From Octopus vulgaris (Eukaryota), in assembly GCA_951406725.2 (NCBI GenBank), contig OX597826.1:56482001-56546000 (forward strand): a stretch of DNA of 64,000 nucleotides. Reading direction: 5' to 3'. The notes under the pieces are model-generated. The model searched no databases and was not told where the DNA came from. It was given only the letters and a program-made list of their open reading frames with translations. The stretch's first letter is position 1, and each line of letters begins with the position of its first letter. Made by a program: the position numbers and the translations under genes. Positions 2,690 through 50,349 of this stretch are shown one piece after another.

Positions 2690-3830
2690 ATGATGCTGGT
2701 ACCACAATGATTTACAAATAACTACACTTTTGCTAGTCTAGTCTACTTAGCTGTAACTAGGTTCCATCATAAGGTATACACTCTCCCTAACACTAAATGT
2801 GTCTAGGTAAGCTTGACCTCTCACCTTTTACAAATGATTTTGTTTATATTGACCAAGTACACAATGAGGTGGTCTCCCTAATATTAAGTAGGTACTGTGA
2901 TGAGGTATACACTCTCTTTAACACTGAATATATACCTTATCAAGGTAAGCTTGACCTCTCACCTTTTACAAATGATTTTGTTTATATTGACCAAGTACAC
3001 AATGAGGTGGTCTCCCTAATATTAAGTAGGTACTGTGATGAGGTATACACTCTCTTTAACACTGAATATATACCTTATCAAGGTAAGCTTGACCTCTCAC
3101 CTTTTACAAATGATTTTGTTTATATTGACCAAGTACACAATGAGGTGGTCTCCCTAATATTAAGTAGGTACTGTGATGAGGTATACACTCTCTTTAACAC
3201 TGAATATATACCTTATCAAGGTAAGCTTGGCTTCTCACCTTTTACTAATAACTTCATTTATACTGACCAAGTCTATGTAGCTGTAACTAGGTACCACAAT
3301 AAGGTAGTCTCTCTAACATTAAATAGGTAACATACCAAAGTAACAAGGTACCATGATAAGGTATACACTCTCCCTAATACTGAATGTGTACCTTATCTAG
3401 GTAAGCTTGGCCTTTCAACTTTTACAAGTGACTTTGTTTATATTGACTAAGTCTACGTAGCTGTAACTAGGTACAGTCTGCCTAACACTAAATAGGTACC
3501 ATACCAAAGTAAATAGGTACCATGATACGGTATACAATCTCCTTCAAACAAGTTAGGTACTATATCAAGGTCAGATTTACCTCCTATGTTTTACAAATTG
3601 CTTCTCTTATACTGACTCAGTCCACCTAGTTGTAAGAAGGCACCCTGATAAAGTATAGTCTTCCTTACTCAAAATAGGTATTGTATCAAGGTCAGTTTTT
3701 TTCTTTCATCCTTTAGAAATAACTTCACTTTCATTGGCTCAGTCAACCTAGCTATAAATAGGTACCGTGGTAAGGTAAAGTCTTCCTCATACTAAATTGG
3801 TACCATATTAAGGAAAGCCCTGATTCTCAT
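2690..3830. repeat. Minisatellite: three essentially identical 138-bp units embedded in older diverged units
   Basis: AGGTAAGCTT starts at 2805, 2943, 3081 and 3219 (period 138), then 3399. Diverged relatives (TAGCTGTAACTAGGTAC-like motif) flank both sides. Confidence 0.92.
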
Positions 3831-4184
3831 TCTGAAGTTGATAAATGCATCACCAGTGTAAGGTGTGAGAAACTGACAGAAACATTAGACTTTCAGAAAG
3901 GATATTCTTTAAATTCTGAGTTTAAGCCTACCATGGTCTACACAGGTAAGGAACCTTATCTGTTGTCTAGTTTAACAACTTCCATCATTTGGTACCATGA
4001 GTGATTTTAGCAGAGTCCATTCTGTTGCAAGCATAAGGACACCTCCCCCCTCCACCAGCCTTAAAGACATCGTAAAGACATTGAATGTTGTTCTTTCTAT
4101 CTCTAAGATAAAAAAACAAAACACCTAGTCTCTTTGACATACAGTAATAAGTGCTATATAGACATACAATAATAAATATATATT

Positions 4185-8693: not shown

Positions 8694-8815
8694 AATTGGA
8701 ACCCAGAATATAAAGAACGACAAGATATGTTACCAGGGAATTCTGTCCAGCACGACATCAATTCTGTTAGCTTGCTAAATTTGCGAAAAATAATGATGAT
8801 GATTGATGTTAAAGG

Positions 8816-8847
<32 letters not shown>

Positions 8848-8872
8848 AAGAGGATGTTAAAGATGATGATGT

Positions 8873-8903
<31 letters not shown>

Positions 8904-9080
8904 AATGATGATGATGAGGATGATGATGAAGACGATGATGGTGATGATGATGATGATGCTCAAGACAACAATGATGATGATGATGATGGTAGTGATGATG
9001 ATGAAAATGATGCTGAAGGCGTTGGTGATGATGGAAATCATGATGAACATGAAGATGGTAACGATGATGACGATGATGAC

Positions 9081-9154
<74 letters not shown>

Positions 9155-9286
9155 GGATAATGATGATTATGATGATGATGAAGATGATGATGAAGATGAT
9201 GATGGTGATGATGATGATGATGATGTTGATGATGAGGATAATGATGAAGATGATGAGGATGATGATGATGAAAAGGATGCTGAAGG
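8694..9286 (+). repeat. Left arm of an inverted duplication (partner ~11420-12056)
   Basis: Unique ~120 bp (AATTGGAACCCAGAAT...GCGAAAAATAATG) plus the patterned GAT tract are the reverse complement of the partner. Confidence 0.9.
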
Positions 9287-11419: not shown

Positions 11420-11525
11420 TGTCATCATCATCATCATCATCATCCTCATCCTCATCATCATCATCATCATTGCCATCGTCATGTTCACCATCATTTTCAT
11501 CATCACCAACGCCTTCAGCATCATT

Positions 11526-11563
<38 letters not shown>

Positions 11564-11762
11564 TATCTTCATCATCTTCATCATCATCATCATCATCATC
11601 ACCATCATCATGTTCATCATGATTTTCATCATCACCAACGCCATCAGCATCATTTTCATCATCATTATCACTACCAGCATCATCATCATCATCGTTGTAT
11701 TGAGCATCATCATCATCATCACCATCATCATCTTCATCATCATCCTCATCATCATCATTATC

Positions 11763-11817
<55 letters not shown>

Positions 11818-12056
11818 ACAACATCATCATCATCATCATCATCATCATCACCATCATCATCATCAACATCATCATCAACATCATCTTAAACATCATCTTA
11901 ATCATCATCATTATCATCATCATCATCATCATCACCTTCAACATCAATCATCATCATTATTTTTCGCAAATTTGGCAAGCTAACAGAATTGATGTTGTGC
12001 TGGACAGAATTCCCTGGTAACATATCTTGTCGTTCTTTATATTCTGGGTTCCAATT
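11420..12056 (-). repeat. Right arm of the inverted duplication; ends inside a family D SINE head
   Basis: Reverse complement of 8694-9286. It continues into CTGCCAAGGTCAGCTTTGCTCTTCATCCT, which is absent from the left arm. Confidence 0.9.
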
Positions 12057-45921: not shown

Positions 45922-48638
45922 AGTCAATTACCTTGTCTATTGGAAAACTCATTATAAAGTCACTCATTAAGTTGAAATATGGAAAGTAAAAAACAAAAAA
46001 AAACACTGAGAAATGCAAAAACAAAAAAGAATCATTTAATTCAGCACACTAACAGTTTTCGTTGAAATTTTGAAAAATTTGGTATTTTTACAAAGTTATA
46101 GCTGAATGATGTCATTGATGGTGATAATGATGATGATGGTGAACTGGTGGGAAATTTGATATTAATAAAAGCTCAAGCATGTAACTGGCAGTGTAGGAAG
46201 AAGTTTGCTTCTCAACCCCATGGATCTAAGTTCAGTCCTTCTGCATGGCAAGCATCAACAAACATCTACTATCGCCCTGGGTGAGCTTAAAGTTTTGTGT
46301 GCATGGATGTGGTAGATGGAAACTAAAAGAAGCCCATCACATATTAATCTCCGCTGGCCTTCTATACTTTGTGATTTTGGCACAGCTGGCCTTGTGATTT
46401 TTCGAAAATTTTCCCCAAAACTTTTTCCAAAATTTTCACCGAGAATTTTCCCCAAAAATTTTTCGAAAATTTTCCCCAAAAATTTTTCGGAAATTTTCAC
46501 CGAAAATTTTCCCCCAAAATTTTTCGAAAATTTTCCCCAACAATTTTTCGAAAATTTTCTCCAAAAATTTTTCGAAAATTTTCCCCAAAAATTTTTCCAA
46601 AATTTTCCCAAAAATTTTTCCAAAATTTTCCCCAAAATTTTTTCCAAAATTTTTACCGCAAATTTTCCCCAAAAATTTTCCCCAAAGTATGGAAAACCAG
46701 CGGTGCCAAAATCACAAAGTATGGAAGGCCAGCGGTGCCAAAATCACAAAGTATGGAAAGCCAGCGGTGCCAAAATCACAAAGTATGGAAGGCCAGCGGT
46801 GCCAAAATCACAAAGTATGGAAGGCCAGCGGAGCCAGAATCACAAAGTATGAAAGGCCAGCGGTGTCGAAATCACAAAGTATGGAAAGCCAGCGGTGCCA
46901 AAATCACAAAATATGGAAAGCCATTTTTCGAAAATTTTACCAAAAAATTTTATGAAAAATTTCAAAAAATTTCGAAAATTTTACCCAACAATTTTTCGAA
47001 AATTTTCCCCAAAATTTTTTTCAAAATTTTTACCGCAAATTTTCCCCAAATATTTTTCCAAATTTTGTAGAAAAATTTCCCCAAAGTATGGAAAACCAGC
47101 GGTGCAAAAATCACAAAGTATGGAAGGCCAGCGGTGCCAAAATCACAAAGTATGGAAAGCCAGCGGTACCAAAATCACAAAGTATGGAAGGCCAACGGTG
47201 CAAAAATCACAAAGTATGGAAGGCCAGCGGTGCCAAGATCACAAAGTATGGAAAGCCAGCGGTGCCAAAATCACAAAATATGGAAAGCCATTTTTCGAAA
47301 ATTTTCACCAAAAATTTTCCGAAAATTTTACCCAACAATTTTTCGGAAATTTTCGCCAAAAATTTCCCAAAAATTTTTTCCGCAAATTTTCCCCAAAGAT
47401 TTTTCCAAAATTTTCTAGAAAAATTTCCCCCAAAATTTTCCCCAAAGTATGGAAAACCAGCGGTGCAAAAATCACAAAGTATGGAAGGCCAGCGGTGCCA
47501 AAATCACAAAGTATGGAAGGCCAGCTGTGCCAAAATCACAAAGTATGGAAGGCCAGCGGTGCCAAAATCACAAAGTATGGAAAGCCAGCGGTGCCAAAAT
47601 CACAAAGTATGGAAGGCCAGCGGTGCCAGAATCACAAAGTATGGAAGGCCAGCGGTGCCAAAATCACAAAGTATGGAAAGCCAGCGGTGCCAAAATCACA
47701 AAATATGGAAAGCCATTTTTCGAAAATTTTCACTAAAAATTTTTCGAAAATTTTCCCCAAAATTTTTCCAAAATTTTTACCGCAAATTTTCCCTAAAGAT
47801 TTTTCCAAAGATTTTCCAAAAATTTTACCCAAAAATTTTTCGAAAATTTTCACCGAAAATTGTACCCTAAAATTTTCCGAAAATTTAACCAAAAAATTTT
47901 TCGAAAATTTTTTGAGAATTTTCACCGAAAATTTTCCTCAAAAATTTTTCGAAAATTTTCACAGAAAATTTTACCCGAAAATTTATCGAAAATTTTCCCC
48001 AAAACTTTTTCGAAAATTTTTGCCGAAAATTTTCCCCAAAAATTTTGTGAAAAATTTCCAAAATTTTTCGAAAATTTTACCCAAAAATTTATCGAAAATT
48101 TTCACCAAAAAATTTTTCGAACAATTTCACCGAAAATTTTAACAAAAAATTTTTGGAATATTTTCATCGAAAATTTTACCCAAAAATTTTTCGGAAATTT
48201 TTGGGTAAAATTTTTGGGTAAAATTTTTGGGAAAATTTTTCGTAAATTTTTGCCGAAAATTTTTCGAGAATTTTCCCTAAAAATTTTTCGAAAATTTTCG
48301 TCAAATATTTTTCCAAAATTTTCACCGAAAATTTTACCCAAAAATTTTTCCAAAATTTTTGCCGAAAATTTTAAGAGAATTTTCACCGATATTTATTAAT
48401 ATCAAATTTCTAACCATCATTATCATCATTATCACCATCAATGACATCATTCAGCTATAACTTTGTAAAAATACCAAATTTTTCAAAATTTCAAAGAAAA
48501 CTGTTAATGTGCTGAATTAAATGATTCTTTTTTGTTTTTGCATTTCTCAGTGTTTTTTTTGTTTTGTTTTTTACTTTCCATATTTCAACTTAATGAGTGG
48601 CTTTTTAATGAGTTTTCCAATAGATAAGGTAATTGACT
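45922..48638. mobile_element. Foldback-like structure: ~250-bp inverted repeats enclosing composite satellites
   Basis: 45922-46169 is the reverse complement of 48392-48638; no clear TSD. Confidence 0.75.
46350..48390. repeat. Alternating GAAAATTTTC A/T-tract blocks and three arrays of a 32-bp unit (AAAGTATGGAAGGCCAGCGGTGCCAAAATCAC)
   Basis: Unit starts at 46684, 46716, 46748 and onward; arrays at ~46684-46925, 47083-47290 and 47444-47715; one inverted unit at ~46351-46392. Confidence 0.92.
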
Positions 48639-48763: not shown

Positions 48764-48859
<96 letters not shown>

Positions 48860-48981
48860 TCACAATCAAGGAACGGCCATAATAGGCCATTCACCCACTA
48901 GAAATAACAGCCAAAAGCTTTAACCGCAAAATAACGTCAATTCCGTAAACCAGGAGAAAATTAAAAAACATTTACCCTGTA

Positions 48982-49088
48982 ATTTCTTAGACGATGCACC
49001 GTTTCATCTACTGTTTAATGGAAAACTAACCTGATTAAATTAAATCAAGCCAATCTACCATAGGCCCTTAGATTCATCAGTAAGAAAT
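48982..49088 (-). ncRNA. Type I hammerhead ribozyme motif
   Basis: Reverse complement of 49885-49991 (TCATCAG at 49074-49080; cleavage C opposite 48990). Confidence 0.88.
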
Positions 49089-49884
49089 AGCCAAGCCGGA
49101 ACAGATATTTTTCACGAGGCATTCTCGTTGCTACCTCGTCAATATCTGACCTAAAATTTTCAAATCGTCGCACTCGCGCTAAATTTATCGGCAGCAAATA
49201 AATATAAGCCGCCGATTCCATTACGGAATTAACCAGAAAATTCATAATTAATCAATATAGGGTGGCAAAAAAATTTTGTAGAATTCTTTTGCCACCAGCG
49301 GCATAGTGGGAAAAAATAAATAGTCATAAACCATTTTTAAGTTCAACATCACAATCAAGGAACGGCCATAATAGGCCATTCACCCACTAGAAATAACAGC
49401 CAAAAGCTTTAACCGCAAAATAACGTCAATTCCGTAAACCAGGAGAAAATTAAAAAACATTTACCCTGTAAACAGGGTAAATGTTTTTTAATTTTTTAAT
49501 TTTTTAATTTTCTCCTTTTTTAATTTTCTCCTGGTTTACGGAATTGACGTTATTTTGCGGTTAAAGCTTTTGGCTGTTATTTCTAGTGGGTGAATGGCCT
49601 ATTATGGCCGTTCCTTGATTGTGATGTTGAACTTAAAAATGGTTTATGACTATTTAATTTTTTCCCACTAGGCCGCTGGTGGCAAAAGAATTCTACAAAA
49701 TTTTTTTGCCACCCTATATTGATTAATTATGAATTTTCTGGTTAATTCCGTAATGGAATCGGCGGCTTATATTTATTTGCTGCCGATAAATTTGCGCGAG
49801 TGCGACGATTTGAAAATTTTAGGTCAGATATTGACGAGGTAGCAACGAGAATGCCTCGTGAAAAATATCTGTTCCGGCTTGGCT

Positions 49885-49991
49885 ATTTCTTACTGATGAA
49901 TCTAAGGGCCTATGGTAGATTGGCCTGATTTAATTTAATCAGGTTAGTTTTCCATTAAACAGTAGATGAAACGGTGCATCGTCTAAGAAAT
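49885..49991 (+). ncRNA. Type I hammerhead ribozyme motif
   Basis: Stem I ATTTCTTA (49885-92) / TAAGAAAT (49984-91), core CTGATGA (49893-99), stem II ATCTA / TAGAT enclosing a long hairpin, GAAA (49968-71), near-palindromic stem III ACGGTGCATCGT, GTC cleavage at 49983. Confidence 0.9.
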
Positions 49992-50349
49992 TACAGGGTA
50001 AATGTTTTTTAATTTTCTCCTGGTTTATGGAATTGACGTTATTTTGCAGTTAAAGCTTTTGGCTGTTATTTCTAGTGGGTGAATGGCCTATTATGGCCGT
50101 TCCTTGATTGTGATGTTGAACTTAAAAATGGTTTATGACTATTTAATTTTTTCCCACTAGGCCGCTGGTGGCAAAAGAATTCTACAAAATTTTTTTGCCA
50201 CCCTATATTGATTAAATATATATATATATATATATATACACGCAAAATGTATATATATATATATGCATATATGTATATATATATATATATATATGCATAT
50301 ATGTATATATATATATATATATTTATGCATATAACTATATATATATACT

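Follow-up and report, generated by a model that had tools for sequence, protein, structure and literature searches.

Inner ends of insertions of an octopus hammerhead retrozyme are in moderate excess just behind the predicted cut site

Introduction

A palindromic repeat in the genome of Octopus vulgaris turns over within a few nucleotides of a predicted hammerhead cleavage site, which raises the question of whether the inversion point marks the 5′ end of a self-cleaved RNA from which the insertion was copied. The locus lies in a stretch of 64,000 nucleotides (contig OX597826.1, positions 56,482,001 to 56,546,000), here called the window. An earlier note on this DNA had read the inversion point as a footprint of integration, left by fold-back of one cDNA or by joining of two cDNAs at the ribozyme-made end. 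Breakpoint maps may bear on the role of the hammerhead ribozyme (HHR) in Penelope-like elements (PLEs) and animal retrozymes; insertions that begin at fixed sites and number in the hundreds to thousands amount to a natural run-off assay.

Metazoan non-LTR retrozymes exist as linear and circular RNA, and in a proposed model of their spread it is the circles that are copied (Cervera and de la Pena 2020, PMC7229834). The PAc protein, from Poseidon of Anolis, nicks and extends both target strands and starts reverse transcription (RT) at two internal sites that delimit a tail; in that study, insertion in vitro did not require HHR cleavage, and none of the RNA-seq reads had its start at the cut site (Frangieh et al. 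2024, PMC11167929).

Methods

Positions in the 489-nt repeat unit are counted from the first base 3′ of the predicted cut (+1), which follows the GTC at 49981-49983 of the window. The sample comprised 153 regions with 154 insertions, including that of the window, of which 150 were scored. Set A consisted of the 40 best full-unit candidates of 1022, set B of the remaining loci among the first 100 matches of an HHR pattern, and set C of all loci among the first 100 matches of a pattern near +100. Set D was ascertained by insertion ends and contained all 37 insertions with the pattern of the long outer end on contig C1 up to 85.7 Mb. A replication set of 40 further end-ascertained loci was added, for which the test interval was fixed beforehand. 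Sets A and B are biased by their selection on full units and on the HHR pattern, respectively, and entered only with delayed entry.

For the breakpoint test, each arm was treated as a path from its outer end, and stops were compared with exposure under delayed entry; the window locus was excluded. Thirteen arms were left out because their outer ends had been lost or rearranged, and some breakpoints were assigned manually. The stratification by encounter with the cut site was not pre-specified. In the search for a partner PLE, 150 of 6136 candidates were scored.

Results

The window insertion consists of two head-to-head arms between (TA)n flanks (Table 1), each with one full unit and one intact HHR. 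In the right arm, stem I is formed by 49885-49892 and 49984-49991, CTGATGA occupies 49893-49899, stem II pairs 49900-49904 with 49963-49967 and has a long insert, GAAA lies at 49968-49971, and stem III has 3 bp with a near-palindromic loop; the bases after the GTC are TAAGAAATTACAGGGTAA. The inversion point lies 8-10 nt past the predicted cut, as the earlier note had stated: the arms begin at +8 and +10 and meet at 49471/49472. The micro-duplications that it had described at 49481-49530 are indeed found to the right of the junction. They amount to 32 extra nucleotides of TTTTTTAA/TTTTCTCC repeats and are better placed at 49484-49515, with an ambiguity up to 49531. The outer ends of the two arms are unequal (left +132, right +230-235), both abut (TA)n, and the arms are mismatched at 5 of 393 compared sites. 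The term fold-back applies only to the centre of this palindrome.

Table 1. Features of the two-armed insertion, in window positions
Feature	Positions	Strand	Basis
(TA)n target flank, left	48764..48857		sequence
Left arm, running from unit +8 to +489 and on from +1 to +132, with the short (S) end, a putative RT start site, on the outside	48858..49471	-	sequence
Minimal type I hammerhead of the left arm, read through, with its predicted cut between 48990 and 48989	48982..49088	-	CTGATGA at 49074-49080 minus; core and stems
Head-to-head junction +8/+10, blunt, with no microhomology and no insertion	49471..49472		arm alignment
Stutter of 32 nt, duplicating unit +22..+37, adjoining the junction	49484..49515	+	sequence
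Right arm, running from unit +10 to +489 and on from +1 to +235, with the long (L) end, a putative RT start site, on the outside	49472..50219	+	sequence
Minimal type I hammerhead of the right arm; predicted cut after C49983	49885..49991	+	sequence; core and stem counts
Tail of ~104 nt (+132..+235), at one outer end only, holding an 18-bp hairpin	50115..50219	+	family alignment; fold
(TA)n target flank, right	50220..50238		sequence

Two further repeats were seen in the window: an AT-rich minisatellite with ~12-nt and 32-nt periods at 46300-48400, just left of the insertion, and an inverted pair of ATC/GAT-type repeat tracts of 578 nt, 83% complementary, at 8694-9271 and 11479-12056.

Judged from its sequence, the window insertion is a copy of an abundant non-coding non-LTR retrozyme whose RNA is predicted to be self-cleaving. 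In the 2.8-Gb, microsatellite-rich host genome, exact 30-mers from the HHR and from near +100 occur 967 and 2782 times, respectively. The tandem units are dispersed in many copies, with arrays of up to 11 units, each carries a type I HHR, and they appear to be non-coding. The RT plus GIY-YIG reading frame of an autonomous EN+ PLE was not found in the window insertion, which consists wholly of the 489-nt unit. Contigs from three sequencing runs, presumed to be of RNA, cover 28-30 of 30 bins of the unit; such contigs show neither strand nor ends nor circles.

The repeat carries a predicted type I hammerhead, with the core CUGANGA / GAAA / NUH and three stems. An Rfam scan gave no hammerhead match at E ≤ 10, and none was among the 150 of 403 matches listed in a wider scan, so the call rests on core and stem counts. 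The core was nearly invariant in 275-295 units (one change). In 320 units, stem I was fully paired in 301, stem II in 247 and stem III in 313, and compensatory changes (A-U to G-C swaps) were present in stems I and II. The cleavage base H17 was C in 231 and A in 89 of these units and never G. Contig ends at 49982/49984 were considered as a sign of cleavage and rejected; they coincide with a C/A polymorphism at 49983.

In one 11-unit arm (L034, G000:C18:59814000-59823900), CpG-type variants recur every ~4 units. This period suggests duplication of the array after insertion, and unit counts are therefore not pure RT lengths. At L046 and L053, one unit each carries 268T and 312T, which are absent from the neighbouring units, hinting at either a heterogeneous multimeric template or recurrent CpG decay.

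The two outer ends are strictly paired across the family. One S end near +131 was combined with one L end near +235 in 110 of 117 two-armed copies (79/84 in the first sets and 31/33 at new loci), no two-armed locus had two L or two S ends, and one-armed S-only and L-only insertions both exist. In 76 of 106 L+S insertions, the adjoining 12 nt on either side consisted of (AT)n alone. At five loci with impure targets (L072, L077, L083, L091 and L109), a target duplication of ~10-12 nt was seen, indicating that each two-armed structure is one insertion. The mean difference between arms was 0.005, compared with 0.027 to other loci (72 loci). Ten locus-private variants were shared by all covering units of the two arms; another 65 were confined to one unit, and 11 were present in some units. 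The insertions show the signature of PLEs, namely an inverted 5′-truncated copy, a one-sided tail, a TA target and a short target duplication.

The joints between arms were heterogeneous. Microhomology of at least 2 nt was found at 47 of 78 insertion-free joints, compared with 18% under the null, and 26 of 104 joints carried insertions. The two halves were symmetric within 12 nt at 30 of 108 L+S junctions, compared with 7.2 expected (0/20,000 permutations); 21 of these lay outside the peak described below, and many centred on short palindromes. At 70 of the 108 junctions, the halves differed by more than 25 nt. Symmetric junctions made up 6/29 in the youngest set and 24/79 in the rest, without an age trend, and the peak junctions were not clearly more diverged (0.0042 vs 0.0028, at few sites).

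Further (TA)n-flanked repeat families were seen at L065 (~3650-3950), L151:2500-3200 and L093:2730-4240. At L065 and L151 these have two arms, a palindromic centre and, on one side, a tail of ~100 nt, so the architecture is common to several families. Two arms of the retrozyme were joined to other repeats, one to an abundant repeat (L040:3026-3250) and one to the head of a tRNA-like SINE (L054:3646-3750), by template switch or later insertion.

The earlier note had expected breakpoints in other copies to peak just 3′ of the GUC. The distribution was not uniform, and the interval +1..+35 was enriched, with 43 of 233 inner ends in all sets compared with 19.6 expected (P 8.5e-7). The other 190 ends fell elsewhere and scattered over the whole unit. 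On the opposite side of the cut, the 35 nt at +455..+489 contained 16 ends, with 18.3 expected. When near-symmetric pairs were counted once per locus, 30.5 ends were found vs 16.5 expected in all sets (P 0.001). In set D, 18 of 62 ends lay in +1..+35, compared with 5.5 expected; the best 35-nt interval started at +1, and 0/400 scan permutations were as good. The pre-specified replication was weaker (11/71 ends vs 6.3, P 0.049) and not significant per locus (6.5 vs 5.0, P 0.38). Short-read contigs of other runs gave 8 of 28 ends in +1..+35 at 14 strand-switch joints, a weak sample from the 15 of 122 joints listed.

Much of the signal in the peak was driven by paired stops, in which the two arms ended within 25 nt of each other. 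Such pairs fell in +1..+35 at 11 of the 48 loci reaching that stretch; the counts were 7/29 there vs 6/190 elsewhere in discovery, and 4/19 vs 7/142 in replication (Fisher P 0.027). Among 24 near-symmetric junctions in the sets with less bias, 11 lay in +1..+35, compared with 3.0 expected under a flat model and 4.5-6.1 when weighted by microhomology, which lowered the excess to P 0.002-0.023. Asymmetric and single arms alone gave 18 ends vs 13.5 (P 0.13), and 14 vs 7.6 within +1..+20 (P 0.02). The peak behind the cut site is real but moderate, at about two to three times chance.

A second peak, at +191..+235 (36 ends vs 19.8 expected), arose mostly in later rounds and was strongest in S arms after two or more crossings (12/42, HR 4.3). 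No ribozyme lies in this interval, so stops other than the ribozyme site exist. In the window it corresponds to 49686-49730 and 50174-50219 and sits on the 18-bp hairpin just inside the L start; the stops could reflect structure or collision with bound enzyme. L arms did not accumulate at the S start (+110..+140). Three symmetric junctions, L140 (+466), L246 (+477) and L250 (+484), lie inside stem II/III of the HHR, just past the cut site, and their templates were therefore uncut there.

The excess behind the cut site was confined to the first encounter of an arm with it. At the first encounter, 31 of 68 stops fell in +1..+35 (HR 3.6, P 3.9e-7), 20/36 in discovery and 11/32 in replication (P 0.015); per locus, P was 0.002 pooled and 0.23 in replication. 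Both arm types contributed, with 15/41 for L arms and 16/27 for S arms. At the second encounter the count was 9/78 (HR 1.5, P 0.18), and at later ones 3/87; all encounters after the first had a pooled HR of 1.17, and the first-to-later ratio was 3.1 (P 0.002). Such specificity for the first encounter is what a cut template end would give, and this is its likely meaning. On first arrival, 31 of the 124 arms that reached +35 stopped, ~18 points above baseline, and 93 read through. The 31 first-encounter ends spanned +5..+35, with none at +1..+4. Divided by subfamily markers, the type of the window had 1/7 first-encounter stops in the interval and another type 0/10. Read-through left no scar in any of 336 units, and scarred template jumps at the cut site, considered as an explanation, were rejected because all these junctions were precise.

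In the window, both arms crossed one ribozyme and ended at the second, so that its junction is a second-encounter stop. A double stop of this kind was found in one other case among the scored loci, L038. Among the 14 junctions whose two ends both lie no further than +36, three (L031, L135 and L235) have a stutter like that of the window, compared with 2 of 318 read-through units; this fits a junction-associated event, either slippage or templated insertion during joining.

Discussion

The earlier note took the inversion point for the 5′ end of a self-cleaved template. For the family, the first-encounter specificity of the peak speaks for such ends; most arms nevertheless read through the site. 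For the window, since the second-encounter class has no significant excess, a product of a ribozyme-cut template and a chance stop are about equally probable, and this single junction, taken alone, proves little. The ribozyme end is an occasional stop and does not build the inversion, because 190 of 233 inner ends lie elsewhere and 93 of 124 arms read through at their first encounter. As to how the palindrome arose, the fixed and unequal outer ends fit the joining of two cDNAs and do not fit simple fold-back of one.

The reading that we slightly favour is that these two-armed insertions are made by a twin-primed PLE-type enzyme, a minority of them from ribozyme-cut linear RNA. With one RNA as template, a borrowed Penelope-type enzyme would prime a cDNA from each target strand, and the ends of the pair would then be joined head to head. 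In a minority of events, the template would be linear RNA cut by the ribozyme, and both cDNAs would stop just behind the cut. End joining would trim 4-30 nt off the cDNA ends, an assumption required by the lack of first-encounter ends at +1..+4. The ~75% of arms that read through may have been copied from a circular or uncut multimeric template, and the window insertion from a linear dimer in which just the 5′ ribozyme had cut. We infer the PLE enzyme, the twin priming, the cleavage in vivo, the trimming of cDNA ends and the circular or multimeric read-through template. That one ribozyme RNA supplies two pools of template, one of cut linear molecules and one of circles or uncut multimers whose read-through leaves no scar, is given slightly less than an even chance.

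Other explanations bear on the peak or on the palindrome. The peak might mark a transcription start at about +5..+30, with cDNAs primed at +131/+235 running out at a capped 5′ end. This likewise predicts paired stops at the first encounter only, and it would explain why first-encounter ends are absent at +1..+4. Newt satellite 2 reportedly has an snRNA-type promoter. In the octopus, the U1, U2 and U5 genes (L184-L219) share ATCAGTG at about -59 and AATTAAT at about -90, which gives a usable snRNA promoter model; with a matrix from their upstream regions, a PSE-like motif ~59 nt upstream of a start was not found in the unit. The two best sense-strand matches of the 15-nt matrix would place starts at +33 and +13, but the training promoters score 12.6-19.8 and these matches 3.5 and 3.2, values that 90% or more of shuffles reach, and longer matrices have no match there. 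The upstream edge of the peak, moreover, coincides with the cut site, and we regard a transcription start as unlikely. Similarly doubtful is that +1..+35 is a hot spot of sequence or structure at which the RNA need not be cut, the window junction being a chance stop. Candidate features are the AT-rich and dyad-rich sequence, a stem-loop at +11..+39, or stalling of RT at the folded hammerhead, and +8 is the base of stem I. The interval has the highest AT content (0.80) and the highest potential for microhomology of at least 3 nt among 14 intervals, 6 of 14 peak junctions use at least 4 nt of microhomology, L242 joins both sides of the +11/+36 stem, and the ribozyme-free second peak falls on a hairpin and on the L start. 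An effect of this kind should act at every encounter, however, and the hazard was raised at the first only. The symmetric excess also survives microhomology weighting, and the GC-rich hairpins at 236-380 have fewer stops than average.

The palindrome itself could be a fold-back copy, by snap-back of the cDNA or self-priming on an antisense template, or a later deletion across a hairpin could have made the near-symmetric centres. The excess of symmetric junctions, many on short palindromes, and the private variants shared between arms are in line with fold-back, for which there are precedents in the self-priming proposed for Penelope elements on the strength of palindromic junctions (PMC3846280) and in snap-back with R2 proteins (PMC11371274). 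Fold-back alone, however, gives no reason for the fixed, different end of the second arm, does not account for S-only insertions, and is contradicted by the many junctions whose halves differ by more than 25 nt; later deletion is opposed by the absence of an age trend and of clearly greater divergence. We hold these routes to be improbable as the origin of the inverted arm, while snap-back is possible as the joining step of the symmetric class. Assembly was also considered. Long palindromes can come from reads with a missing adapter, and the junction at 49471/49472 is known from the assembly alone. The window arms, however, have different outer ends and flanks and are not identical, and a separate junction exists at each of 116 other two-armed loci. 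Since head-to-head joints also recur in short-read contigs of independent runs (among 15 of 122 joints listed), an artefact is very unlikely.

We return to twin priming by a PLE-type enzyme. In L1 twin priming, two primers on one RNA give an inversion with microhomology; the second priming site is variable in L1 and fixed here. The architecture matches the insertion signature of PLEs (Craig et al. 2021, PMC8557442), and PAc extends both target strands (PMC11167929), which together suggest twin priming in the octopus. EN+ PLEs (Penelope/Poseidon, Neptune and Naiad) likewise insert into microsatellites with a short duplication of the target; they share partial tandems, an inverted 5′-truncated copy at the 5′ end, a one-sided tail and palindromic inverted junctions, and they carry an HHR in their pLTRs, as the retrozyme carries one in its unit (PMC8557442; Arkhipova et al. 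2013, PMC3846280). The retrozyme differs in having no ORF, a tail of ~104 nt instead of 30-40 nt, and strictly paired S and L ends. The present data favour two target-primed cDNAs on a sense template over the antisense self-priming proposed for EN+ PLEs (PMC3846280). The AT-rich target, the two putative RT start sites that delimit the tail and the HHR upstream of them are as in PAc. In contrast to the dispensable cleavage described for PAc in vitro, genomic ends here pile up behind the predicted cut at the first encounter (PMC11167929). A self-cleaving ribozyme also sets the template's 5′ end in R2, whose 5′ ends are precise, whereas those of the octopus repeat are smeared over +5..+35 and used in a minority (PMC11371274).

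Metazoan non-LTR retrozymes likewise have a non-coding tandem unit with one type I HHR and form dispersed high-copy arrays, and their mobilisation by PLEs from linear and circular RNA is a proposal (PMC7229834; Li, Clavereau and Pollet 2026, bioRxiv 10.64898/2026.07.22.740005). Their units measure ~170-400 nt, compared with 489 nt here, and, unlike in the circle-template model, a minority of the octopus insertions look like copies of cut linear templates (PMC7229834). The element kind and the inverted layout are already known. Head-to-head arms with fixed ends and breakpoint statistics were not found for metazoan retrozymes in the accessible text, in which the words "inverted" and "target site" occur 0 times (PMC7229834). 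Nor was a map of PLE or retrozyme breakpoints against the hammerhead site found in open-access main texts; genomic and RNA-seq ends near the HHR are the subject of Fig. S2 of Frangieh et al., which may be relevant to this novelty. The present analysis contributes a test stratified by encounter and the finding that symmetric junctions are in excess, together with the limits that apply to each.

A partner PLE related to the unit was not found among 40 GIY-YIG loci (mostly one family), none of which shares unit sequence, bar one inserted fragment. A young autonomous PLE family is present elsewhere in the genome, with a 781-aa frame containing RT and GIY-YIG, copies that are mostly 98-99% identical, and (TA)n targets. 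Its copies (L164-L180, e.g. L174:2578-6582) have two 3′ ends ~39 nt apart, and a possible U3-A8 hammerhead variant, putative and recognized by eye, lies in the pLTR.

If the first-encounter peak holds genome-wide, cut linear RNA would be used in vivo, with a share of about one in six arms reaching the site, and twin target priming would gain support as the origin of the inverted repeats of PLEs. If the two template pools are real, breakpoint maps alone would yield in vivo evidence that the hammerhead cuts before Penelope-type integration takes place and that a single RNA molecule is the source of both arms.
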